Origin: a plasmid
DNA: 64,000 bases
Strand: one strand, 5' to 3'
Sequence record: OW969666.1
Within the stretch, counting starts at the first letter, position 1. The number at the start of each line of letters is the position of its first letter. The notes beneath the pieces were generated by a model, which was given only the letters and a program-made list of their open reading frames with translations, was not told the origin of the DNA and did no database searches. A program made the position numbers and the translations under genes. This document shows, piece by piece, positions 3,995 to 64,000 of this stretch.

Positions 3995-4537
3995 ATGATA
4001 ATCTGGATCAACGGACCTTTCGGCGCCGGAAAGACGACTCTCGCTGAGCGGCTGCGCGATCGGCGTCCGAAATCGCTGATCTTTGACCCTGAGGAAATCG
4101 GGTTCGTGGTGAAAGAAACGGTCCCCATACCAGCGAGCGGAGACTATCAGGATCTCCCCTTGTGGAGGGGACTTACGATCGCTGCGGTCAGCGAGATTCG
4201 CAGGAATTACTCGCAGGACATCATCATCCCAATGACGCTCGTGCACCCGGACTATCTGACTGAGATACTCGACGGGTTAAGGCAGATCGACGATCAGCTG
4301 CTGCACATCTTTCTGATGCTTAACGAGGACCTATTGCGTCACCGGATCTCGAACCAGACCATGCATCCTGACCCGAATCGGAATGCGGAGATTCGAGAGT
4401 GGCGATTAGCGAATGTCGCCCGATGCTTGGCCGCAAGGGAACGGCTTCCGTCCACAACCCGTGTTCTCGATAGTGGTGCACACACCAGCGATGAACTTGC
4501 AGCGATGGTGCTCGACAGACTCGATCAGCGCACCTGA
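3995..4537 (+). CDS. tmrB: Tunicamycin resistance protein TmrB-like ATP-binding protein (180 aa).
   Basis: P-loop GPFGAGKTT near the N-terminus. Conserved partner gene found downstream of aac(3)-II. Confidence 0.82.
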   Translation: MIIWINGPFGAGKTTLAERLRDRRPKSLIFDPEEIGFVVKETVPIPASGDYQDLPLWRGLTIAAVSEIRRNYSQDIIIPMTLVHPDYLTEILDGLRQIDDQLLHIFLMLNEDLLRHRISNQTMHPDPNRNAEIREWRLANVARCLAARERLPSTTRVLDSGAHTSDELAAMVLDRLDQRT

Positions 4538-4607
4538 TCGCCTTAGAGCTGGCTCGGGAAATCTGCACAGCGGGGATAAGTGGAGTTTCTGCCTGACTTC
4601 GGCTTAG

Positions 4608-4940
4608 ATGCCGGGAACAGGAGAGACCATGACGAGACGACCGCGCCGGAACCATAGCCCGGCTTTCAAGGCGAAGGTGGCACTTGCCGCCATCCGAGGT
4701 GAGCAGACGCTGGTGGAGTTGTCCCAGCAGTTCGATGTGCACGCCAACCAGATCAAGCAATGGAAAGACCAGCTCCTTGAGGGGGCGACAGGTGTGTTCG
4801 GCGATGAAACGAAAGCGGAGCCGTCGGGTCCGACCATCGATGTCAAAACGCTGCACGCGAAAATCGGCGAACTGACACTGGAGAACGATTTTTTATCCGG
4901 TGCGCTCGGCAAGGCGGGATTGCTGGGCGGAAAGAAATGA
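4608..4940 (+). CDS. IS3-family transposase OrfA (HTH). Part of a truncated IS3-family element (ISCfr1/ISKpn11-like context).
   Basis: Translation MPGTGETMTRRPRRNHSPAFKAKVALAAIRGEQTLVELSQQFDVHANQIKQWKDQL... Overlaps orfB in the typical -1 frameshift arrangement. Confidence 0.8.
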   Translation: MPGTGETMTRRPRRNHSPAFKAKVALAAIRGEQTLVELSQQFDVHANQIKQWKDQLLEGATGVFGDETKAEPSGPTIDVKTLHAKIGELTLENDFLSGALGKAGLLGGKK

Positions 4941-5678: not shown

Positions 5679-6498
5679 GGCACTGTTGCAAAGTTAGCGA
5701 TGAGGCAGCCTTTTGTCTTATTCAAAGGCCTTACATTTCAAAAACTCTGCTTACCAGGCGCATTTCGCCCAGGGGATCACCATAATAAAATGCTGAGGCC
5801 TGGCCTTTGCGTAGTGCACGCATCACCTCAATACCTTTGATGGTGGCGTAAGCCGTCTTCATGGATTTAAATCCCAGCGTGGCGCCGATTATCCGTTTCA
5901 GTTTGCCATGATCGCATTCAATCACGTTGTTCCGGTACTTAATCTGTCGGTGTTCAACGTCAGACGGGCACCGGCCTTCGCGTTTGAGCAGAGCAAGCGC
6001 GCGACCATAGGCGGGCGCTTTATCCGTGTTGATGAATCGCGGGATCTGCCACTTCTTCACGTTGTTGAGGATTTTACCCAGAAACCGGTATGCAGCTTTG
6101 CTGTTACGACGGGAGGAGAGATAAAAATCGACAGTGCGGCCCCGGCTGTCGACGGCCCGGTACAGATACGCCCAGCGGCCATTGACCTTCACGTAGGTTT
6201 CATCCATGTGCCACGGGCAAAGATCGGAAGGGTTACGCCAGTACCAGCGCAGCCGTTTTTCCATTTCAGGCGCATAACGCTGAACCCAGCGGTAAATCGT
6301 GGAGTGATCGACATTCACTCCGCGTTCAGCCAGCATCTCCTGCAGCTCACGGTAACTGATGCCGTATTTGCAGTACCAGCGTACGGCCCACAGAATGATG
6401 TCACGCTGAAAATGCCGGCCTTTGAATGGGTTCATGTGCAGCTCCATCAGCAAAAGGGGATGATAAGTTTATCACCACCGACTATTTGCAACAGTGCC
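5679..6498 (-). mobile_element. IS26: IS26 copy 2, complete at 820 bp.
   Basis: Identical to copy 1. IRs at both ends. Confidence 0.97.
5731..6435 (-). CDS. tnpA26: IS26 transposase Tnp26.
   Basis: Identical 234-aa protein. Confidence 0.97.
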   Translation of the reverse strand: MNPFKGRHFQRDIILWAVRWYCKYGISYRELQEMLAERGVNVDHSTIYRWVQRYAPEMEKRLRWYWRNPSDLCPWHMDETYVKVNGRWAYLYRAVDSRGRTVDFYLSSRRNSKAAYRFLGKILNNVKKWQIPRFINTDKAPAYGRALALLKREGRCPSDVEHRQIKYRNNVIECDHGKLKRIIGATLGFKSMKTAYATIKGIEVMRALRKGQASAFYYGDPLGEMRLVSRVFEM

Positions 6499-8744
6499 CT
6501 ATTTTTCGGGGATCTGATTGCCCTCTGGCAATATCATTCAGCACGCCATAGTCGGCATCATGGTCCATTCGCCAGAAAACCGAAGCACCGGCATCAGCCA
6601 GGCGTGGAGAAAACTGGTATCCCAGCAGCCAGAAAAGGCCAAAGACAAGTTCGCTGGCACCTGCTGTATCGGTCATAATTTCGGTTGGATTCAGCCCGGT
6701 CTCCTGTTCCAGAAGACCTTCCAGCACAAAGATAGAGTCCCTCAGCGTCCCCGGTATAACGATGCCATGAAAGCCGGAATACTGATCGGACACAAAGTTG
6801 TACCAGGTGATCCCTCTGTTATTACCAAAGTATTTGCGGTTCGGTCCGGCATTGATTGTTCTGACTGGCGTAACAAAGCGCATTCCATCTGCAGATGCCA
6901 CTTCTCCTCCACCCCATATCTGTGCCAGTGGCAGCGTTGCCTGAAAATCAACCAGTCTGGCATTAGCGCTGGTGATAGTTTCAGCCCGCAGATAGTTCGC
7001 TTTTGTCCAGTTCAGCCGGTGTCGGGTCAGTGCAGGAACATTTGATCTGATCAGTGGTTCCAGACCGATATTGCAGGCTTCAGCCATCAGCACGGCGCTG
7101 ATGCTGACGGGCAGATCATCAACTCTGGCACTGGCTTCACTAGCATGGAAAAACTCATCAGCAAATCCGGTATGGGCGTTAATTTCGAGCAGCAACTCCG
7201 TTAAATCCACCGGAGGGAGTAGATCACTGATCATTTTGCTCAGTCGTTTCAGACTGTCCGGCTCATCAAGACTGGCGAGGGGAGAAATTGTCAACCGGGG
7301 CTTCGGGCCAGAAACATCGAGTTCGACAGCCTCATTTTCGCAAAGACGTGCAGCAACCTGTCTGTAACGACTATCAAGCTGATGACCCAGAGATTTTATT
7401 GCTTCCTGCGGGTCTGTCGGGTGCCCCAAAGAACGATAAACCTTAATCCGGTTTGCCTGCCAGTCAGCACCCTGTAGTAATCTTGCACGAGGATCTCCCC
7501 ACCGGTTACTGCCGGTAACGTAGACATCCCTCCGCCTCAGACTATCCTGCAGTTTACTGAGAAAGCAGAGCGTGTATCCCCTGCGGGTGATATGTTTTTC
7601 CTTGTTAATCACCAGCCGTTTCCATGACCGACTGATAATTTCCGTTGGTGCGTCGTCAAAAAACTGCCGCCGTGAGCTGAACTCCCGGCTGAGGTAGTCA
7701 CAGGCATTCAGAGTGGTAACCCCGGCAGGTGCGGATGAAAATTTAACGGTATTCAGCAGATGGGGCAGGAAACGACGAACGCGCCCGTACTGCTCCACCA
7801 TTTCTTCATGAAAATTATCGTCTGAGGGCCGGGCAATTTCACGGACAAGCGTGATGATTTCAGCCAGCTTTTGCCTTGGGATGTAGCTGAACACCTCAGC
7901 ACGAATCGATTCGTCCGGTGTTTCTTCTTTCAGCAGGTACGAACATGCGCTGGCGAGCGCCAATGCAGATTTATCCAGATCCTTCAGCGAGCGGAGCCGT
8001 TTTTTCTGCCCAATCTTTCTGGCGTCACGGATGATAACGGCCAGCATGGCGTCCAGAACGTCCAATGCATCATCCAGCGCCAGCGTTTCCCATGCAAGGA
8101 CAAAGGCAACCAGAACCGCCATCCTTTTCTGCGGTGACATCCTGGCAATATTGAACACCGAAGTCATACCAGCATAACGTGCGAGATTTTTCAGGCGCAC
8201 AGCCGGGAGTGTACTCAGGTTTTCAGCATGCAGGCCAAAATCGTTCAGAGTTTTCCAGCGTTCAATTGCTTCATTAAACGCCGGACCACTGATGGTCACA
8301 GGGCCCTTTTTCAGTGATTCCAGTAAAGACAGGCGGCTGCAATCAGTTGGCCCCAGCAGCATCTCCAGCTGTGAACGCTGTTCGGCTGACGGTATCAGTG
8401 CCAGTTTGTTCCACAGGCGCAACGTCGCCTTTTCCCTTACCTCTGAAATCAACCGGGTCAGCGTAGTGGCTCCGGGGAGAATAATACGATGTTGCATAAG
8501 CCACCCTGTCGCCAGATCGAAAAGCAGGCCAGGACGTTCGTTGCTTATCCAGCTCCGGGTATATAAAAGACGGGTAAGGCGAAATGTCCAGGGCCAGGCA
8601 AATTCACGATACTGATAGTGCTGACGTATCAGCGCTGCATGCTCACGGCGGGTATTTTCCCTCTGACCGTATTCTGCAAGAACGGTGATATCACGAATCC
8701 CGAGCTGTCTGGCGGTAAAATGCCGGACGCCGGAAGGAATATGA
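6499..8744 (-). pseudogene. tnpA: Tn2/Tn3 transposase TnpA, central and distal portion. It is interrupted upstream by the ISEcp1 unit and truncated at its 3' end by IS26.
   Basis: IPSGVRHFTARQLGIRDITVLAEYGQREN...LMQHRIILPGATTLTRLISEVREK... matches Tn3 TnpA. The frame continues into the IS26 IR, ...RKIGHCCK. Confidence 0.9.
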
Positions 8745-8756
8745 CCTGGGACCTAC

Positions 8757-9089
8757 GTGCGCCCGCACCGACACCCTCACACCTTCGAGCTACTGTTGCC
8801 ATTAAGGGGTCGTTTCGTGGTGCTGAATTTTGACGATCGGGGTACCGTCACCCATCGGGCGATATTGGGGGAAACCTGTACGGTGCTGGAGATGGCCGCA
8901 GGAACCTGGCATGCCGTGCTGTCGCTGGATACCGGTGGCATAATTTTTGAAGTAAAACACGGTGGCTATCAACCCGTGGCTGCCGATGACTATGCGCACT
9001 GGGCTCCAGCGGAAGGAGAACCAGGAACCACGGAGCTTATGGCCTGGTATGCGCAAGCGCAGGTGGGCGACAGCACTTTTGCCGTCTAA
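8757..9089 (+). CDS. wbuC: orf477/WbuC-family cupin-fold protein (Kluyvera-derived passenger downstream of blaCTX-M).
   Basis: 110-aa ORF immediately downstream of blaCTX-M on the opposite strand, as in the canonical unit. Confidence 0.75.
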   Translation: MRPHRHPHTFELLLPLRGRFVVLNFDDRGTVTHRAILGETCTVLEMAAGTWHAVLSLDTGGIIFEVKHGGYQPVAADDYAHWAPAEGEPGTTELMAWYAQAQVGDSTFAV

Positions 9090-9135
9090 GGCGATAAACA
9101 AAAACGGAATGAGTTTCCCCATTCCGTTTCCGCTA

Positions 9136-11715
<2,580 letters not shown>

Positions 11716-54166: not shown

Positions 54167-55327
54167 ATGTTAACAATGAATCAAAAATGGAAGACGCTGT
54201 TAATTTCGGTATTAACTCCGTCTGGCATCATATCAGGGATCGCGCTGACTGTGCTCTGGGGATATTTCAGTCGTCTTGACAGACTCGATGTTTTCTTTGA
54301 GGTGATGAGCATCAAGAGTCTATTCGCTATGGTCTGCTGCGCAGCCGTATTCTCATTAGCGATTCTGTTATTTATCTTTTTTATAATCTCTATATTCATG
54401 CCGATTATCATTCCTCTGGACATCAATAATCTTCCTACATACAATAAAATTCAGAATAACTTTTTATCGATACTGATGCTGTCAGGACTGTTCCCGATGG
54501 CGTTTATCTATGTATTTTACTATGCTTTCGATTTCAGCCAGGCCGTAAAAAATAATTCAGGCTGGCTGTCTTTGCTAAGTATCGGTGTACTGACCATAAT
54601 TATTTCCTGCCTGATAAGCCGAAAATATCTAGAACACGACTTATCAATTAAAAATACGAAGGTGAGATGGATGCGGCGATGCCAGATTTATGTGGCCATC
54701 CCGCTCTGTATAGCACTGCTGGCGCATCTTCAGGTGTTTCCACTGGAAATAGTATTCAGGAATATTTCTGCTTCAACTGAAAAGGTAAGTTTCAGGATCG
54801 TGGCCGGAATGGCGTTCATGTCTTATATGGTTTTTTTTATGACAATTTTGCCTGGCCTCGTTTACCTCAGAATGGATGCCAAGGATAAACTCCCCAAAAA
54901 AATTAGCACTTCCCTGATAGTGTCTCTGATGATACTGTTATTTATTTCTACAAAAATAACTGTTTTACCTGTTATATTTACTCATTCCGTCATTAAACTT
55001 TCAGGTATAAGTGATTTCAGCACCCACAGCTATATTATAAAATCTAGCGAGTATCCGGAGGAGTTTTTTTCTAATTCAGTTTGGGATAGGAAAAAAATCA
55101 AAGCAGGAGAATATTACTCGGTTCGGGCTGTTTCTATATTTACCACCAATCAATTCAGTTTTCTTTGCCCTGAAGAAATAATCAAATCCTATAGGGAAAG
55201 CTGGAAATTTAATCCGCTGGATTCTGAGTTCGATACAGATGTCAGGCTTAAACTCCAGAAAGATGCCGCTTACTGCGTACCGGTTTCAGCGACAGCTGTA
55301 AAACGCTGGGATGTTCCACTCCAGTAA
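54167..55327 (+). CDS. Unknown polytopic inner-membrane protein (386 aa, about 9-10 TM helices). Encoded in an AT-rich (low-GC) segment.
   Basis: Long ORF with a strong hydrophobic periodicity. Local base composition is clearly lower in GC than flanking DNA. RBS AGGGAATGTTAACAATG. Confidence 0.6.
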   Translation: MLTMNQKWKTLLISVLTPSGIISGIALTVLWGYFSRLDRLDVFFEVMSIKSLFAMVCCAAVFSLAILLFIFFIISIFMPIIIPLDINNLPTYNKIQNNFLSILMLSGLFPMAFIYVFYYAFDFSQAVKNNSGWLSLLSIGVLTIIISCLISRKYLEHDLSIKNTKVRWMRRCQIYVAIPLCIALLAHLQVFPLEIVFRNISASTEKVSFRIVAGMAFMSYMVFFMTILPGLVYLRMDAKDKLPKKISTSLIVSLMILLFISTKITVLPVIFTHSVIKLSGISDFSTHSYIIKSSEYPEEFFSNSVWDRKKIKAGEYYSVRAVSIFTTNQFSFLCPEEIIKSYRESWKFNPLDSEFDTDVRLKLQKDAAYCVPVSATAVKRWDVPLQ

Positions 55328-56059: not shown

Positions 56060-57358
<1,299 letters not shown>

Positions 57359-57368
57359 CCACTACACG

Positions 57369-58871
57369 TTAGTTTTCTACTAACTGAACGACGACTAGCC
57401 TGCCGCCTTCCTCCTTTGACAGAACAAACTGAGCGTTATTCGTCAGTTCAATTTTTTCACCAATGGCAATCTGTCGTTTATCCGGTAATGACATAAGCCC
57501 ATTTATGCCTTCATTTACTAACCACCACTGATCGTTATGGAAAACAAAATACCCAACTCGTTTCCTTTGTGCATCGGTTGTGCGCTCATTTGGCGCAATG
57601 AGGCGATTCACATGCCACGCATAGATTGACTGCCCGCTCCACACCATCAACCGGTGATCGTCAGGACGATAACTGCCTTCCTTTCGGGATGAATATAAAT
57701 TTAGAACCGGTAATTTACCCTTGTATGGCGTACCGCAGTAGGGACAAACCGGCTTTGTCTTACCTGAGAAAACGTACCATTTCTGTTCACACGCCTTGTT
57801 CTGGCAGGGCTGTATCAGATCGACTGTTTTAACCAGGGCACTTTCCCACTCATCGGCGGTCGGGCGTTTAGTGGCATCGTGTAAGCCATCAATAAAGGCG
57901 CGTTCAAACAAAGGCGTCAGATAAGGGCCCATGATGGTGTAAGGAATTTTCTCCGGGTCAGCCCAGGGCAGTGAAAAGGAGGATAGCTGACTGACTTTGA
58001 CTGCATTGCTTTTGTCTGTCGGATGTTCAATGAAGAGTGCCTTCTCACCCATAGATAAGGTCTCATCACGTACTTCATCCGACATGTCATGTATTTTTCC
58101 GCCACGTAGCGGATGACGGAAGAACAGATACATGTAGATAAGCACCGACAGCGCATGACGGTCAGTAGAAATGCTTGGCAATACGCGGTTCGGATCCTCT
58201 TTGGAAAGATGGCTGGTTTTCACCACTTCCGGAGCGATAAAATCCGGGGTGCCCACGACGTCGGGAGGATACTTTCCAGGGACAACCAGGCCGTCTACGT
58301 CAATGATGCAGGCATGTCCCATTTCTGGATCGATAAGCACGTTTTTATAGCTTAGATCGCTGTGACAGAGACCTGCCGCATGCATCCTTCTGACGGCTCT
58401 TGTTAGCAGCAGACAGACCTTGAGATAGGTAAGCGTATTGCCTCGTTCACGTGGGTCGAGAAATTTATTCTGGTTGCTGGCGCTGGCAAACCATTTGCCT
58501 TCCTTTTCACGGCCTTTTATGCCAAGAAAATCATCGTTTTTAGAGCCGTATTTAAAGAAAAAGTAGCTTTTGTAGGTTGGAACCACGATGCCGATTTTAT
58601 CCCCATGCTCAACAACGTGGGTCGGCCAGCAAAACAGGTCCTTCCAGTATTCACCTCCGGACTGGCCAAAAATGTTTTGCCTGTAGCGTCCGGTGATCAT
58701 ATCAATCCGATCCCGGGCCTGCTCGTTCTGCGGTTTATGATAAAAAGCGACGACGTATGATTTATCAGGCGAGAAGTAAACATCCTTCATCGAGCCCGAA
58801 CCAATTACCTCGTCAACATACTGGACTGTTTCGCCGTCCTTTGTTTTGCACGTAACAATATTTGCCATATT
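57369..58871 (-). CDS. Hanks-type Ser/Thr protein kinase (about 500 aa). Has a C-terminal zinc-ribbon and FHA-like region. Last gene of the TerY-P-type operon.
   Basis: Catalytic loop HSDLSYKNVLID, DVDGLV (DFG-equivalent), GTPDFIAPE (APE) and N-terminal VIGSGSMKDVY (Gly-rich loop). C-terminus has CQNKACEQKW...CPYCGT (4 Cys), then a block resembling an FHA core (GYFVFHNDQWWLVNEGINGL...IGEKIEL). Confidence 0.8.
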   Translation of the reverse strand, partial: NMANIVTCKTKDGETVQYVDEVIGSGSMKDVYFSPDKSYVVAFYHKPQNEQARDRIDMITGRYRQNIFGQSGGEYWKDLFCWPTHVVEHGDKIGIVVPTYKSYFFFKYGSKNDDFLGIKGREKEGKWFASASNQNKFLDPRERGNTLTYLKVCLLLTRAVRRMHAAGLCHSDLSYKNVLIDPEMGHACIIDVDGLVVPGKYPPDVVGTPDFIAPEVVKTSHLSKEDPNRVLPSISTDRHALSVLIYMYLFFRHPLRGGKIHDMSDEVRDETLSMGEKALFIEHPTDKSNAVKVSQLSSFSLPWADPEKIPYTIMGPYLTPLFERAFIDGLHDATKRPTADEWESALVKTVDLIQPCQNKACEQKWYVFSGKTKPVCPYCGTPYKGKLPVLNLYSSRKEGSYRPDDHRLMVWSGQSIYAWHVNRLIAPNERTTDAQRKRVGYFVFHNDQWWLVNEGINGLMSLPDKRQIAIGEKIELTNNAQFVLSKEEGGRLVVVQLVEN

Positions 58872-58893
58872 GATCACCGAAGAAGCGTATCCC

Positions 58894-60534
58894 TTACCAC
58901 AACACCGCAATAGTGCGGTCATCGTGGTTCCCTGTGGAGAAAAAGTTAAGCCAGTCGCCTAACCTCTCAGGCGCAATACTGGCGTCTGTAAGGACAGGGA
59001 TGAGCTCATCAAGGAGACGGGTCCATTTTTCGTCACTGCGAAGCCCGTTATCTGTCTCAAACAGAGGGTCTGATACGCCATCTGTCATGAGGATCAAGTG
59101 AGATACATCATTCCATTTACCCACGCTGATGCGGCCGCTAAACGAGGGGTCTGCGATAATGCTCTGGTCAAGAAAGCGGGTTTGTCCTGCGTATTCTCCG
59201 CTATCGGGATTTCCCAGTATCCTGACTTTACCGGAAGGGCTGTATGCACCTATCGCACCATCACCAAGCCAGAATGCAGCCGCAAACAGCTCATTATCAG
59301 TTCGTAGCGCTACAGTTGCCAGTAGGGTTGTTGAATAGGATTTCACAGGTTGTTCTGCACAAATGGCTTCGTTCTGGATACTGTTGACCGCGAGCGTAGC
59401 TGCCTGTTTAAAATGATGAAGCATGGCGTTTATGGTTGCCTGCTGATCGCTCCCTTCCCACGCCGTGATGTGCTGCTTTAGATGGACGCCTTTCAAACCA
59501 CTGAGCTGATTGAAAAGGTAATCGCCAGCCGTTTGGACTGCAATCCGGGAGCCTTCCCGGGAATTTACCGCACTACCGGCCCCGTCTGCGACCAGCATGA
59601 CAGACCATCCTGTTTCCTGGCAGTGGTTGATATAGAAGTCGTCATCTCTGAAGCTCCCGGCATGCTCATGAGATCGTCCCCGGCGACTGGCGGCAGCAAT
59701 ACGTATGTCACCCCTGACCAGGCCAGCAGCGTCCAGATGGGACTTAGGGTAGGAAGCGCCTGCTGGTGGCTCTACCACCTTCCACAGGCTTCTCGGATCG
59801 GGATTGACTATAAAAAGCTGTTTTGTTTCGCATTCGTCGTGCGAAGCGCATGACCAGAGTACTGAAAGCTCTATATCGCCGCTTTCGGTGGGTGTACCTG
59901 TCAGCAACTTATGCTCTTTGTCAAAGGTCAGGCCAATGTTCCTGGGAAAGACAACGTCCCTGACAGTAGCCTGCTGGCCCTCATCCAGAACTATAGCAAC
60001 CGGCGAAGAGAAACGTTCGCCTGCGCGGGCGTTGGGAATAACTATTTTAGCTCTCGGGGGAACGGCAGGTGGCACAGCTAATCCGGCCCGCTGCTGGCCT
60101 GTCGGTATCTGCCCGGGTTTTAATACCAGGGAAGACAGGTTTTCGTCTTCCCTCTGTGCTGGTTTATCAAATTCGTAATAAGGCATCAGCTTCCAGAACG
60201 GAGGATGAGGTTCATTTTCTGGCAGGGGTTGCAGTAATGGTGTATCGGTAGCGTCAATGCCCGGGTTATCTGCATCACTTACGACCGTTTGTTGCTGATC
60301 GGAAAGGCTGGATGCTGACGAGGGGGCGATCTCTGCGTCGTTATAACCTTCGCTAACCCGCGCAGATAAACCCTGTGCAAGGCTCTCAATCCGCTCTTTA
60401 AGCCGCATAATCTCTTCAGTAAGGGAAGGGTCGTGCGATAGAAGAAAAAGCCGCTCACCTTCTACAGGGTGGCCCAGCTCAGACAGCACTAAGCGGATAA
60501 TCTTCTCTTCAAGTAAAGCATTTTGCGACATCAA
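58894..60534 (-). CDS. PP2C-family Ser/Thr phosphatase (546 aa). Has a long N-terminal coiled-coil/Pro-rich region.
   Basis: C-terminal half carries PP2C-like metal-binding blocks: RRGRSHEHAGSFRDDDF, LVADGAGS, MTDGVSD, NHDDRTIAVLW. Stop overlaps the kinase upstream region. Start overlaps the preceding vWA gene by 4 bp. Confidence 0.75.
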   Translation of the reverse strand: MMSQNALLEEKIIRLVLSELGHPVEGERLFLLSHDPSLTEEIMRLKERIESLAQGLSARVSEGYNDAEIAPSSASSLSDQQQTVVSDADNPGIDATDTPLLQPLPENEPHPPFWKLMPYYEFDKPAQREDENLSSLVLKPGQIPTGQQRAGLAVPPAVPPRAKIVIPNARAGERFSSPVAIVLDEGQQATVRDVVFPRNIGLTFDKEHKLLTGTPTESGDIELSVLWSCASHDECETKQLFIVNPDPRSLWKVVEPPAGASYPKSHLDAAGLVRGDIRIAAASRRGRSHEHAGSFRDDDFYINHCQETGWSVMLVADGAGSAVNSREGSRIAVQTAGDYLFNQLSGLKGVHLKQHITAWEGSDQQATINAMLHHFKQAATLAVNSIQNEAICAEQPVKSYSTTLLATVALRTDNELFAAAFWLGDGAIGAYSPSGKVRILGNPDSGEYAGQTRFLDQSIIADPSFSGRISVGKWNDVSHLILMTDGVSDPLFETDNGLRSDEKWTRLLDELIPVLTDASIAPERLGDWLNFFSTGNHDDRTIAVLW

Positions 60535-61573
60535 CCTCTCCCTCTGTTTACGTCGAAGTTAGTGTTTCCGCCATCATTGCTGAATGACAGACCTGTTTCA
60601 CACCACGGGCAGATCACGTCATCCGGGCCGTCAATGCACAGCAATTTTCCGCATGAGCACAGGGCAAACGCACTGGCATTACCGCAGTGAGGGCAACCCG
60701 GTACGCCATGCAGTTCGCTGGTGTTTACCTGCAAACCGGTAGCGGTGGCATCTGACCATGCAAAATAGTCCTCATCGATGGGATAGCATCCGGCAATATT
60801 AAAGCTGTTCAGGTTCAGGCTGAAATCGAGCCCGGAAATCCTTGCTGGTGGCCGTTCATACTTCATCAGATACGGACGACGGGTCTTGCTGCAACGGCCG
60901 GTAAGCGTAACGCAGATTTCGTCGTACGCTTTTACTGGCTCGTCCTTGGCCAGCCGGACTATGTATTCAGTCTGGCTGAGCTCAGGTTGTTTGTCGTCTC
61001 CGACGCTGCGGCTGTGCGCCGTAACCGAGGCTGTGATCCATTTGATGAAGCGGGTAAAGTCCCCTTCCTGAGACTCGGTGAACAGCATGACATTCTCTGT
61101 CAGTTGCCGCAGGGTATTCAGGTCCGCTGACGGCCCCAGGCCAACGGCAATGAGATTCACTTTACTCGCGTAGTGATCCTTCCAGCGCTTCACTTCTGCG
61201 GTTGTGTCGTCAGTCGGACGTCCGTCGGTAAGGAGATACACGACGGGTTTCCAGTCGCCTTTAGCCTCATGAGTGGTTTTTCTGACCTGGGTATCAATTT
61301 GTACGGTCAGCTCACGCAATGCGGCCCCAAGGCTCGTACCGCCGCCAACGGGAAGGCGGGGAGGGTAGAACGAGGCAATTTCGTGAAGAGGTACAATCGT
61401 ACGGGCTACACCGGCAAATGCGATTACCGAAACCCAGGCTGTTTCAAGTGCGTGTGGATCCTTTCTTAAATCTCCGACGATCATTTGCAGACCATCAGTC
61501 ATTTTTTTCAGGTTTTCACCAATCATGGACTCTGAACAGTCCAGGACAAAAAACACGGGAAGGCGTCTCATAA
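60531..61573 (-). CDS. TerY-like von Willebrand factor A (vWA) domain protein with a C-terminal double-CxxC zinc-ribbon extension (347 aa).
   Basis: N-terminal MRRLPVFFVLDCSESM (MIDAS motif DxSxS), ...LLTDGRPTD. C-terminus CPHCGN...CSCGKLLC...CPWCETG. RBS AGGAAAATTATG. Confidence 0.8.
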
Positions 61574-61656
61574 TTTTCCTCGTACGGCTGGTACGGCCAG
61601 CAGAAAACGTTGCTGTACAGAAAGGTGCTGCCCGGAAAGCAGCACCTTTCTGTCTG

Positions 61657-62295
61657 TCAGAGCACCAGCTGGATTTCTGGTGGAGGAGGGGGAAGGGTAT
61701 CAGTTCCGTTATTGATCCCCGCGCTTGTGCTGCCGGAAGACACGCTGGCCGATACCCATTTAAAGAAACCTGCAAACGCGGTTGAATCTAGCGTCTCCAG
61801 AGACACAACCTTATCGGTGAGCTGTTTTAAGTGCTCATGGCCTGCTTTAGGACCAACGGCGCAGGCAATGATGGATCCGAATCCCCGGCCGCGAATCGCT
61901 TTTACCGCTTCACCGTACGCCAGGGCATCAGAAGGGGTTCCATCAGTCATCAGGAATACCAGAGGACGCCAGTCTCCTTTTGTATCACCATCTGAGCGAC
62001 GTACATCCCGTTCAACACACTGCATCAGACATTCAAGGGCAGCACCGGTGAACGTCCCGCCTGCGCTTGGCACAACGATATCAGAAAACTGGAAGTCTTC
62101 CAGCGGCGTGAGAGGAATGAACTCACGCGCCCCATTGTCATAGGTGATAATGGAGATATGAACGCTTTCGAGGGCGTAGGGATCCTGGCGAAGAGCGCTA
62201 AGCATCGCCTGAATTCCAACGTTAACGGAATGGATGGACTCACCGCGCATCGAGCCGGATGTGTCGATAACAAGGTAAACAGGCAGGCGGCGCAT
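61657..62295 (-). CDS. terY: TerY-family vWA domain protein (212 aa).
   Basis: MRRLPVYLVIDTSGSM (MIDAS), ...VFLMTDGTPSD..., C-terminal LPPPPPE. Start overlaps the terD-like stop. Confidence 0.85.
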   Translation of the reverse strand: MRRLPVYLVIDTSGSMRGESIHSVNVGIQAMLSALRQDPYALESVHISIITYDNGAREFIPLTPLEDFQFSDIVVPSAGGTFTGAALECLMQCVERDVRRSDGDTKGDWRPLVFLMTDGTPSDALAYGEAVKAIRGRGFGSIIACAVGPKAGHEHLKQLTDKVVSLETLDSTAFAGFFKWVSASVSSGSTSAGINNGTDTLPPPPPEIQLVL

Positions 62296-62936
62296 CACAT
62301 GTAATTCCTCAGGTGCGAGACAAACGAATCTGATTCTGAAGGCTCACCAATTGCCCTGAGTTTCCAGCCTGTAGCCTCGCGTATCAGCTCGGCAAAAACC
62401 ATGGAGCGCTGGCTGGCGAAGGCGGGTCCGCCAGAAAGATCGAATCGTGCCATTTCAATATTACGGGCATCTACTGCCCGGATGAAGGCATTCTGAACTT
62501 TACCAAAGTGCTGCTGGAGCTTTTCACCATTGTAGATCTGAACGATGAACACAATTTTCTCGTACTGAGCGTCAAGGGAATTCAGGCGCACAATAATTTG
62601 CTCATCGTCACCGTCACCGGCTCCGGTTCGGTTATCGCCCGTCAGCCAGATATTTCCTGACTTATGGCGAAGGCTGTTGAAAAAGATGATATCGCCATTC
62701 ACAAGCGTTGGTTTACCATTTTCCACATTGCCGAGATCGGTCACCTTTCCGGCTGAATTACACAGGAAAGCGATCACATCAAGGTCGTATTCTTCTTCTT
62801 TTTTACCAAAGATCCCGCCGAGGAAACCTTTCTTTTCCTCATTAATATCCCAACCCAGGCCGATAGTAACGGACGAGAGATCGTATTCATTTTTTTTCAG
62901 GCTTACGCCCTGGCCTTTGCTCAGACTGACAGACAT
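62295..62936 (-). CDS. terD: TerD-family (TerD/TerX/TerZ) stress protein (213 aa).
   Basis: MSVSLSKGQGVSLKKNEYDLSSVTIGLGWDINEE... is the characteristic TerD-domain N-terminus, with acidic Ca-binding-like DxD clusters (GDNRTGAGDGDDE). Confidence 0.85.
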   Translation of the reverse strand: MSVSLSKGQGVSLKKNEYDLSSVTIGLGWDINEEKKGFLGGIFGKKEEEYDLDVIAFLCNSAGKVTDLGNVENGKPTLVNGDIIFFNSLRHKSGNIWLTGDNRTGAGDGDDEQIIVRLNSLDAQYEKIVFIVQIYNGEKLQQHFGKVQNAFIRAVDARNIEMARFDLSGGPAFASQRSMVFAELIREATGWKLRAIGEPSESDSFVSHLRNYM

Positions 62937-62958
62937 GACATCCCCTTAATTAATAAAA

Positions 62959-63597
62959 TTATAAGACCACGTTTACTTCTGGCGGCGGCGGTGGCAGGTC
63001 TTCAAGACCGATCACTTCTTTTTTGCTGGACTCCACTTTCTGACTGCCTACCGAAATGCTCGCACTGACCCATTTAAAGAAAGCTTTAATCGTCGAACTG
63101 TCAGCTGTATCGAGCTGAACCACGATTTCAGTGATTTCTTTGAGGACGCTGGTATCGGCATCATGCCCGGCTGCACATGCCACAACAACGCCGGTTCTGG
63201 CCGCTTTAAAGTCATTCAGGCCTTTACGCCAGTCATCATTCGGACTTCCATCCGTCATCAGGAATACAAGGGGACGCCAGTCACCTTTAGTGTCAGCCGT
63301 CGTTTTCTGTACTTCTTTGGCAATGGAGCTGGCCGTCAGGGTAAGCGCTTCGCCAAGAGAGGTGGTGCCGCTGGCTGTTAGTGCTGGCATCTGGAAACTC
63401 AGGAGGTCTGTCAGGGGGACTGCCTGTCGGGCTGAAGAATCAAAGGTGATCACTGACACGTAAGCCGTTTCGAGTGCATACGGATCCTGTTTCAGCGTGG
63501 TAAGCAGCGTCTGAACGCCATTCTTAACCGCTTCGATAGGCTCTCCGTGCATAGAGCCGGACGTGTCGAGTAGCAGATATACGGGTAAGCGTCTCAA
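62959..63597 (-). CDS. terY: TerY-family vWA domain protein (212 aa). Probable TTG start. Paralog of 61657-62295.
   Basis: (M)RRLPVYLLLDTSGSM, ...VFLMTDGSPND..., LPPPPPE tail. RBS AAGGAATTACATTTG is conserved with the paralog's GAGGAATTACATGTGATG. Confidence 0.8.
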   Translation of the reverse strand: MRRLPVYLLLDTSGSMHGEPIEAVKNGVQTLLTTLKQDPYALETAYVSVITFDSSARQAVPLTDLLSFQMPALTASGTTSLGEALTLTASSIAKEVQKTTADTKGDWRPLVFLMTDGSPNDDWRKGLNDFKAARTGVVVACAAGHDADTSVLKEITEIVVQLDTADSSTIKAFFKWVSASISVGSQKVESSKKEVIGLEDLPPPPPEVNVVL

Positions 63598-64000
63598 ATG
63601 TAATTCCTTCTTAAGAGATCGGAAGAGGAGAGTAGTTTCAGGAAGAGGCCAGAGTTTGTAGATTTGATAAAACGGCACGACATCTGTCGGGTGGAGATTA
63701 AATACTCAGAAGCGGCATTAAAGAAATAAGTTAACCACCATTGAATTACCGACATGTGAATGGCCTCTTATCAGAGAAAAAAATTCAGACCGTACTGGAA
63801 TATAAGATTTCTGAAAAAAACTCCGGCAAAAATAAACTTTCTTATGTATGAAAATCATCATACATCACAGATCTGCATGAATGGAGTGTAAATCGCCCAA
63901 AGATTGATGTGTAGCACAAGAGGATGTCAAGACACCAGGTTTTGTAGGCAGAAAGGCGCTGCTGACATTGCGGGAGGAGAATAGATCAAAACTCCGTCAC

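Follow-up and report, generated by a model that had tools for sequence, protein, structure and literature searches.

The terY1-terX-terY2-terY3-PP2C-kinase block of the ter locus on an IncFIB/IncFII plasmid

Does a compact set of phospho-signalling genes on a plasmid constitute an anti-phage system in its own right, or is it one part of a larger resistance locus, and what might its kinase and phosphatase control? The question is raised by a minus-strand run of genes at the end of a 64,000-nucleotide stretch of plasmid DNA (sequence record OW969666.1; this whole stretch is referred to below as the window), which encodes von Willebrand factor A (vWA) proteins, a TerD-family protein, a PP2C phosphatase and a Ser/Thr kinase (STK). 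A first reading, made from the letters and a list of open reading frames (ORFs) alone (hereafter the sequence-only reading), described these genes as a TerY-P-type phospho-signalling operon. With near certainty, we identify them as the block of genes, in the order terY1-terX-terY2-terY3-PP2C-STK, that belongs to the classical ter locus of enterobacteria, known for tellurite resistance, phage inhibition and colicin resistance. This block is already known: it has been published, it is very common, and it has been named within terWY1XY2Y3 (PMC11003894) and within terY-CYXYW-ZABCDEF (PMC12054061). The window adds another copy of it rather than a new kind of system.

Few accessory gene sets are as widespread as the ter locus, which occurs on the resistance and virulence plasmids of enterobacteria and on O157-type islands. 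Its biochemical function is unclear after 30 years, and of its parts the TerY/PP2C/kinase block has been studied least. Triads related to this block are genuine phage-defence systems, and knowledge of the kinase substrates would help to explain the maintenance of ter in pathogens. The observations reported here are refinements of a known module, namely an FHA fold with no evident FHA sequence signature, an Ig-like module in the PP2C phosphatase, conserved TerY tails, a possible glycine-loop Lys, and a fixed six-gene order quantified across distant Proteobacteria. These refinements offer experimental handles and do not define a new system.

The six-gene block and its place in the ter locus

A 7 kb query comprising the cassette and its flanks (57000-64000) gave a 100% full-length megablast match to plasmid pECL_A of Enterobacter cloacae ATCC 13047 (NC_014107.1, 137000-144000), so that the window corresponds to pECL_A 80001-144000; 100% matches are also present in many E. 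hormaechei plasmids. At least 80% of the query is covered by 1200 plasmids in PLSDB. Among 5426 complete E. coli genomes, 324 reach this coverage, most of them through IncHI2 plasmids with 99.7% identity; pKL53-L (NZ_CP030920.1) matches at 99.7% identity over 95% of the query. The public pECL_A record also shows what lies beyond the window. On the cassette strand stand terW, a DUF4236 gene and a metabolite module encoding an HpcH-type lyase, StiP, a HAD protein and a PRTase, and farther out are terZ, terA, terB, terC, terD, terE and terF, which are divergently transcribed. The terW gene (144064-144528 of that record) lies 466 bp upstream of terY1 and ends 64 bp past the window. The sequence-only reading had anticipated terZABCDE-type genes just past the edge and had proposed extension beyond position 64000 as a check; the matching plasmid shows terW and terZABCDEF there, and these neighbours agree with the Pfam domains in placing a TerY-P-type module in a ter context.

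Comparison with the ter clusters of IncHI2 plasmids (R478, pKL53-L) shows that gene content and gene order are shared, with 99.7% of nucleotides identical and with terW, the PRTase/HAD/StiP/HpcH module and terZABCDEF again as neighbours. The IncHI2 plasmid pP136-1 likewise carries the cassette in the order seen in the window. The parallel to IncHI2 plasmids that had been drawn from the sequence therefore holds for the locus but not for its carrier, which is an IncFIB/IncFII plasmid. The two settings also differ downstream of the cassette, where the IncHI2 clusters continue with CoiA and Hha, whereas here an IS3-family insertion sequence (IS) follows the kinase stop and a 386-aa membrane protein is encoded beyond it.

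Six genes make up the block. The first in the direction of transcription, terY1 (62959..63597), encodes a stand-alone vWA protein of 212 aa (Pfam VWA, E = 3e-14; RefSeq WP_001388628.1) and is followed by the gene for a 213-aa TerD-family protein (62295..62936; Pfam TerD, E = 1.3e-52; RefSeq WP_000116681.1), which we call terX after the terWY1XY2Y3 nomenclature (PMC11003894). A second stand-alone vWA protein, also of 212 aa, is encoded by terY2 (61657..62295; VWA, E = 1.5e-11), while terY3, or terY-C (60531..61571), joins a vWA domain to a cysteine-rich TerY_C metal-binding domain in a protein of 346 aa (VWA, E = 1.2e-13; TerY_C, E = 3.3e-52). The genes for the 545-aa PP2C phosphatase (58894..60531; PP2C_2, E = 1.3e-46) and the 499-aa Ser/Thr kinase (57369..58868; Pkinase, E = 6e-10, above the gathering score) complete the set. 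Profile hidden Markov models, named by the sequence-only reading as the check on its domain calls, thus recovered VWA three times together with TerD, TerY_C, PP2C_2 and Pkinase, and failed only for FHA (PF00498). Each of the six ORFs is intact and encodes a protein identical to one that is widespread in RefSeq. With RefSeq starts, the intergenic distances from terY1 to the kinase gene are 22, -1, 85, -1 and 25 nt, the terY2 start overlapping the terX stop (ATGA), so the tight packing and overlap of genes on a shared minus strand are borne out, and the array is compatible with joint transcription. The number of genes is not: seven had been counted, but the accompanying list itself named six, RefSeq annotates six coding sequences, and no seventh gene was found in the 22-, 85- and 25-nt gaps.

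The operon had also been described as running off the window edge, with a promoter-proximal end at or beyond 63678. That position is the start of the longest ORF, is without support from homologues and is very probably wrong as the start of terY1. We place the start at 63597 because the TTG codon there follows an AAGGA Shine-Dalgarno sequence and yields the 212-aa form, beginning MRRLPVY, that is found in all relatives; the cassette therefore begins inside the window. For terY3, too, the longest ORF (to 61775) overlaps the preceding gene, terY2, and is unsupported, the RefSeq start being 61571. Upstream of terY1 on the same strand lies an AT-rich, non-coding leader of about 400 bp (63598..64000; GC content 0.42, no ORF), which probably holds the promoter of the cassette. 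A consensus scan found no sigma-70 site in this leader, and the same kind of scan for promoters and terminators gave no convincing candidate, either upstream of terY1 or beyond the end of the kinase gene.

A scan of a genome collection with the kinase returned 588 confirmed relatives, of which the best 80 species loci were analysed. The order Y1-X-Y2-Y3-PP2C-STK is exact in 70 of these 80 and spans Enterobacterales, Acinetobacter, Chromatiaceae and Nitrosomonas; other ter-associated genes lie within 10 kb in 66 of the 70 loci of the same order. In Enterobacterales, terW and the metabolite module are found upstream of the cassette. Acinetobacter and Gilliamella carry the metabolite module and TerD paralogues downstream of it, and in Chromatiaceae, Nitrosomonas and Zoogloeaceae it is TerD, with or without TerC, that lies upstream. 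Divergent kinases of the same architecture, with zinc ribbon and FHA fold, occur in minimal vWA-PP2C-STK triads, one of which adjoins a series of TerD genes along with a gene for a cation ATPase.

Two side observations came from this survey. In divergent minimal triads a small ORF of 77-79 aa follows the kinase gene (9501-9734 in locus L088 and 4505-4744 in locus L089); that of L089 starts MRRLPAF, like a truncated TerY N-terminus, and no such ORF follows the kinase gene of the window. A genome labelled as Bacteroidota (CACSKA010000014.1, 'Chryseobacterium sp. 18061') holds a whole ter block whose kinase is 97% identical to the Enterobacter one, which probably reflects contamination or very recent transfer.

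Domain architecture of the kinase, phosphatase and TerY proteins

The kinase combines a Hanks-type C-lobe with an atypical N-lobe, a four-cysteine zinc ribbon and a C-terminal FHA-fold domain of about the last 115 aa. Alignment of the C-lobe to PDB kinases identifies HSDLSYKN as the catalytic loop, IID as the equivalent of DFG and GTPDFIAPE as the APE motif, and the HSD, KN, IID and APE motifs are conserved. When a full-length-kinase profile was compared with the PDB to place the N-lobe, only the C-lobe aligned, the N-lobe being too divergent. Within the N-lobe, the glycine loop GSGSMKDVYF (58780-58810, residues ~22-32) has a conserved Lys at the position usually taken by the third Gly, and the β3 segment VVAFY (58735-58750, residues ~39-45) is without the VAIK Lys. 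This pairing is reminiscent of WNK kinases, and because the VAIK Lys is absent the glycine-loop Lys may be the catalytic one. Among distant homologues of the kinase, some lack the catalytic HxD...N (HGALSARN, FSDLSYNT and YSQLSLLS are found instead) and keep the zinc ribbon and FHA-fold domain; they are likely pseudokinase scaffolds.

The zinc ribbon that the sequence-only reading had noted on the kinase is confirmed by four cysteines that are invariant in the family (C..x4..C, CPxC). The region that follows it had been called FHA-like, and this is correct for the fold, an 11-strand β-sandwich of FHA type, but finds no counterpart in the Pfam profile. Searches of the isolated C-terminus at E ≤ 10 gave no FHA match and only zf-CHCC below threshold (E = 0.12), a scan of 39 diverse homologues one by one gave a weak FHA match in a single member (E = 0.21), and a 39-sequence family profile compared with PDB sequences retrieved no FHA chain, only a spurious ELMO1 at E = 0.3. 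Only WH and one Asn are near-invariant in this domain across 49 diverse homologues, and its close homologues have GQS at the expected GR position. The module formed by zinc ribbon and FHA fold is uncommon, with 331 clusters among 1.84 billion representatives, and it nearly always terminates kinases of ~500 aa.

The phosphatase is built from an N-terminal helical bundle (residues ~7-60), a disordered linker (61-133), an Ig-like or cadherin-like sandwich (~160-245) and the PP2C_2 catalytic domain (285-530). In an AlphaFold2 model of residues 1-284 the Ig-like domain has a model-confidence score (pLDDT) above 90, and its Foldseek matches are to SraP, dystroglycan and Rib domains. The conserved acidic catalytic motifs RDDD, ADGAGS, TDGVSD and HDDRT are near-invariant. 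The phosphatase is nevertheless the fastest-evolving member of the cassette, its median identity to the window protein across the species loci being 50%, compared with 83% across genera for the kinase, with the divergence focused in the N-terminal helical, linker and Ig-like part.

The three vWA paralogues TerY1, TerY2 and TerY3 share 41-49% mutual identity, and their alignment shows the D-x-S-x-S...T...D motif of the metal ion-dependent adhesion site (MIDAS) to be complete and invariant in all three. The cysteines of TerY3 (CPHC...CSC...CPWC) fall to TerY_C in Pfam, in keeping with the zinc-ribbon vWA protein of the sequence-only reading. At their C-termini, TerY1 carries the tail LPPPPPEVNVVL (codons 62959-62997) and TerY2 the tail LPPPPPEIQLVL (codons 61657-61695). 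Their common pattern, LPPPPPE[VI][NQ]xVL, is near-invariant, being present in 68-69 of the 70 species loci, and a tail of this type is found again in the TerY proteins of divergent minimal triads. TerY3 ends in FDVNRGRG, and across loci in FDVxRG[RK]G, instead of the proline-rich tail. The TerY tails look like candidate docking peptides. The invariant Glu of the tail was considered as an obligatory MIDAS ligand and rejected, since a divergent TerY has Q-G at this position.

A proposed phospho-switch and its alternatives

TerY-P was defined by Anantharaman, Iyer and Aravind (2012), as cited in PMC11090510, by three components, namely a vWA protein of the TerY type, a PP2C phosphatase and a kinase carrying a zinc ribbon at its C-terminus, and was hypothesised to act as a metal-sensing phosphorylation switch. 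The block in the window matches this description in the adjacency of the three defining proteins, the zinc ribbon of the kinase and the MIDAS of the vWA proteins. It differs in having three vWA paralogues and TerX, and in that the region after the zinc ribbon adopts an FHA fold. The antiphage TerY-P system of Gao et al. (2020), for which E. coli and P. aeruginosa served as test hosts, shares the kinase, phosphatase and vWA enzyme classes and their logic; according to PMC11090510, however, the C-terminus of the tested kinase is an OB fold and not a zinc ribbon, where the kinase studied here has zinc ribbon and FHA fold. TerY-P triads protect against T7-like phages (PMC7699616), and in a P. aeruginosa study they protected against Autographiviridae with most cells surviving. 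The statements of the sequence-only reading that the triad was predicted computationally, has been reported to be antiphage and works by a mechanism not yet known agree with these three sources.

Two further systems inform the comparison. In Deinococcus radiodurans, DRA0331-DRA0334 (vWA, STPK, an FHA protein and KI-FHA-PP2C) unite vWA, kinase, FHA and PP2C in one operon, in which FHA docking sets the balance of kinase and phosphatase in push-pull antagonism (bioRxiv 10.64898/2026.01.23.701218). In that operon a canonical FHA protein stands on its own, a second FHA is joined to the phosphatase, and no TerD or TerY_C proteins are present; here, by contrast, it is the kinase that bears the FHA fold, and the canonical sequence signature is not evident in it. 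In K. pneumoniae, deletion of terC lowered phage, Zn and Mn resistance, and every gene in the ter operon is Zn(II)-inducible, according to PMC12054061.

We favour, as the probable explanation, a composite in which the TerY-P block of the ter locus acts as a push-pull phospho-switch that tunes the Ter machinery; the identity of the block is near certain, while its mechanism is moderately uncertain. In this proposal the kinase and the PP2C phosphatase would form opposing arms of a phospho-Ser/Thr switch whose clients may be the TerY vWA proteins, possibly TerX, or the two enzymes themselves. The FHA-fold domain of the kinase and the Ig-like domain of the phosphatase would serve as docking modules that recruit these clients, and the assembly state of a TerY/TerX complex would be gated by divalent cations that occupy the MIDAS, TerD and TerY_C sites. 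The output of the switch would tune or restrain the adjoining membrane-associated TerC/TerD complex and the PRTase/StiP/HpcH metabolite module, this Ter machinery being the part that would deliver stress, tellurite and phage resistance.

Several observations weigh against this proposal. The substrates and output of the kinase and phosphatase are inferred, and no experiment on the kinase, the phosphatase or the substrates of the block was found in the searchable literature. Four of the 70 same-order loci have no ter-associated neighbour in 10 kb, so the block, though often coupled to Ter, does not have to be. Phospho-Thr binding by the FHA-fold domain is at best putative, because FHA sequence profiles fail and no canonical GR / SxxH signature can be made out, and the kinase has an atypical N-lobe that lacks the VAIK Lys. 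Finally, tellurite, phage and colicin phenotypes map to insertions in terZ, terC, terD and terA, not terY, according to Whelan 1995 as cited in PMC12054061.

The same four loci lend themselves to an alternative that we regard as unlikely, in which the cassette is a self-contained anti-phage defence of the TerY-P type of Gao et al. 2020, sensing infection and blocking phage, especially T7-like podophages, without terZABCDE. The phage protection conferred by TerY-P triads, cited above, accords with such a role, as does the carriage of the locus on mobile elements, where it adjoins an integrase; one Chromatiaceae contig, moreover, has only toxin-antitoxin and housekeeping genes as neighbours of the cassette. 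Against it, the great majority of same-order loci are embedded among ter genes, six genes are present here and not three, and the tested kinases differ in their C-terminal domain, an OB fold according to PMC11090510. PADLOC searches at E ≤ 0.01 and at E ≤ 10 gave no match for the vWA, TerD and PP2C proteins, although the presence of TerY-P models in the PADLOC copy used is unconfirmed, and the kinase drew only weak matches, to the other kinase families mad6, PD-T4-6 and MkoA. The TerY-P systems with tested defence belong to another branch, and because the tested kinase has an OB fold and PADLOC models miss the locus, their antiphage phenotype is not simply transferable to the six-gene ter version.

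Whelan and colleagues reportedly described in 1997 a terXYW region of R478 that shields E. coli against the toxicity of the ter cluster. The block could accordingly be pictured as an antitoxic 'protection' module that restrains toxic terZABCDE products rather than signalling stress, a role to which we assign a distinctly low probability. The constancy of its linkage with ter genes across the survey fits such a role, and survival in tellurite is better with constructs that combine terXY1W and terZABCDEF than with terW-terZABCDE by itself (PMC11003894). The construct concerned, pNT3B, carries terX-Y1-W only and is without terY2, terY3, PP2C and kinase (PMC11003894), so the kinase/phosphatase pair is not needed for the effect on tellurite survival. 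Some loci, furthermore, have no terZABCDE nearby, and restraint of Ter products overlaps with the proposed switch and does not exclude it.

The tails and the unusual N-lobe described above admit a further and improbable explanation. The FHA-fold domain would have lost the canonical phospho-Thr pocket and would instead dock the strictly conserved TerY tails (LPPPPPE-φ-x-φ-V-L), and the kinase would use the WNK-like Lys of GSGSMKDVYF, making the whole a phospho-independent scaffold-plus-atypical-kinase device. That such a device might be able to work without terZABCDE is suggested by the loci that lack ter-associated genes within 10 kb. Scarcely credible, lastly, is the reading of the cassette as decaying cargo with a pseudokinase and an IS3 element that marks loss of function, for while the kinase N-lobe is atypical, HxD/N motifs are lost in some distant homologues and an IS sits at the 3' end, the present evidence is strongly to the contrary: the six ORFs are unbroken and their products match common RefSeq proteins exactly, the HSD, KN, IID and APE motifs are conserved, the kinase keeps a median identity of 83% across genera, and the IS lies outside coding sequence.

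The IS3-family element and the surrounding plasmid

The IS3-family element next to the kinase gene (56109..57366, plus strand, 1258 bp) is bounded by terminal inverted repeats of 26 nt (56109-56134 and 57341-57366) and flanked by a 3-bp target-site duplication, CGT, at 56106-56108 and 57367-57369. The kinase stop codon, TAA, has its final base at 57369, and the placement given in the sequence-only reading, 0 bp after the kinase stop with the duplication overlapping the stop by one nucleotide, is exact. The transposase is encoded in two ORFs, orfA (56145-56492) and orfB (to 57358), and is annotated in RefSeq as IS3 family transposase. With the element spliced out, the junction is contiguous at 97% identity in the IncHI2 plasmid pP136-1. 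Disruption of the operon by the IS was considered and rejected, as in that reading, the insertion being outside coding sequence; the element is probably a bystander, with all coding sequence intact.

A match to the Rfam family isrC (RF01387; 146 bits, 56177-56299, plus strand) falls inside orfA of this element and belongs to the insertion sequence, not to an independent small RNA gene. Between a tyrosine recombinase gene and the IS3 element lies the 386-aa ORF mentioned above (54167-55327, plus strand; GC content ~0.40), a hypothetical protein with many hydrophobic segments. The host plasmid is conjugative, with chrBA, several toxin-antitoxin pairs, an F-type tra region and several IS3-family elements. 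Two more of these elements lie in the window at 5890-7010 and 8687-9855 (ISSen4-like and ISEc52-like), where they adjoin relBE and hok toxin-antitoxin genes and the chrBA chromate-resistance genes.

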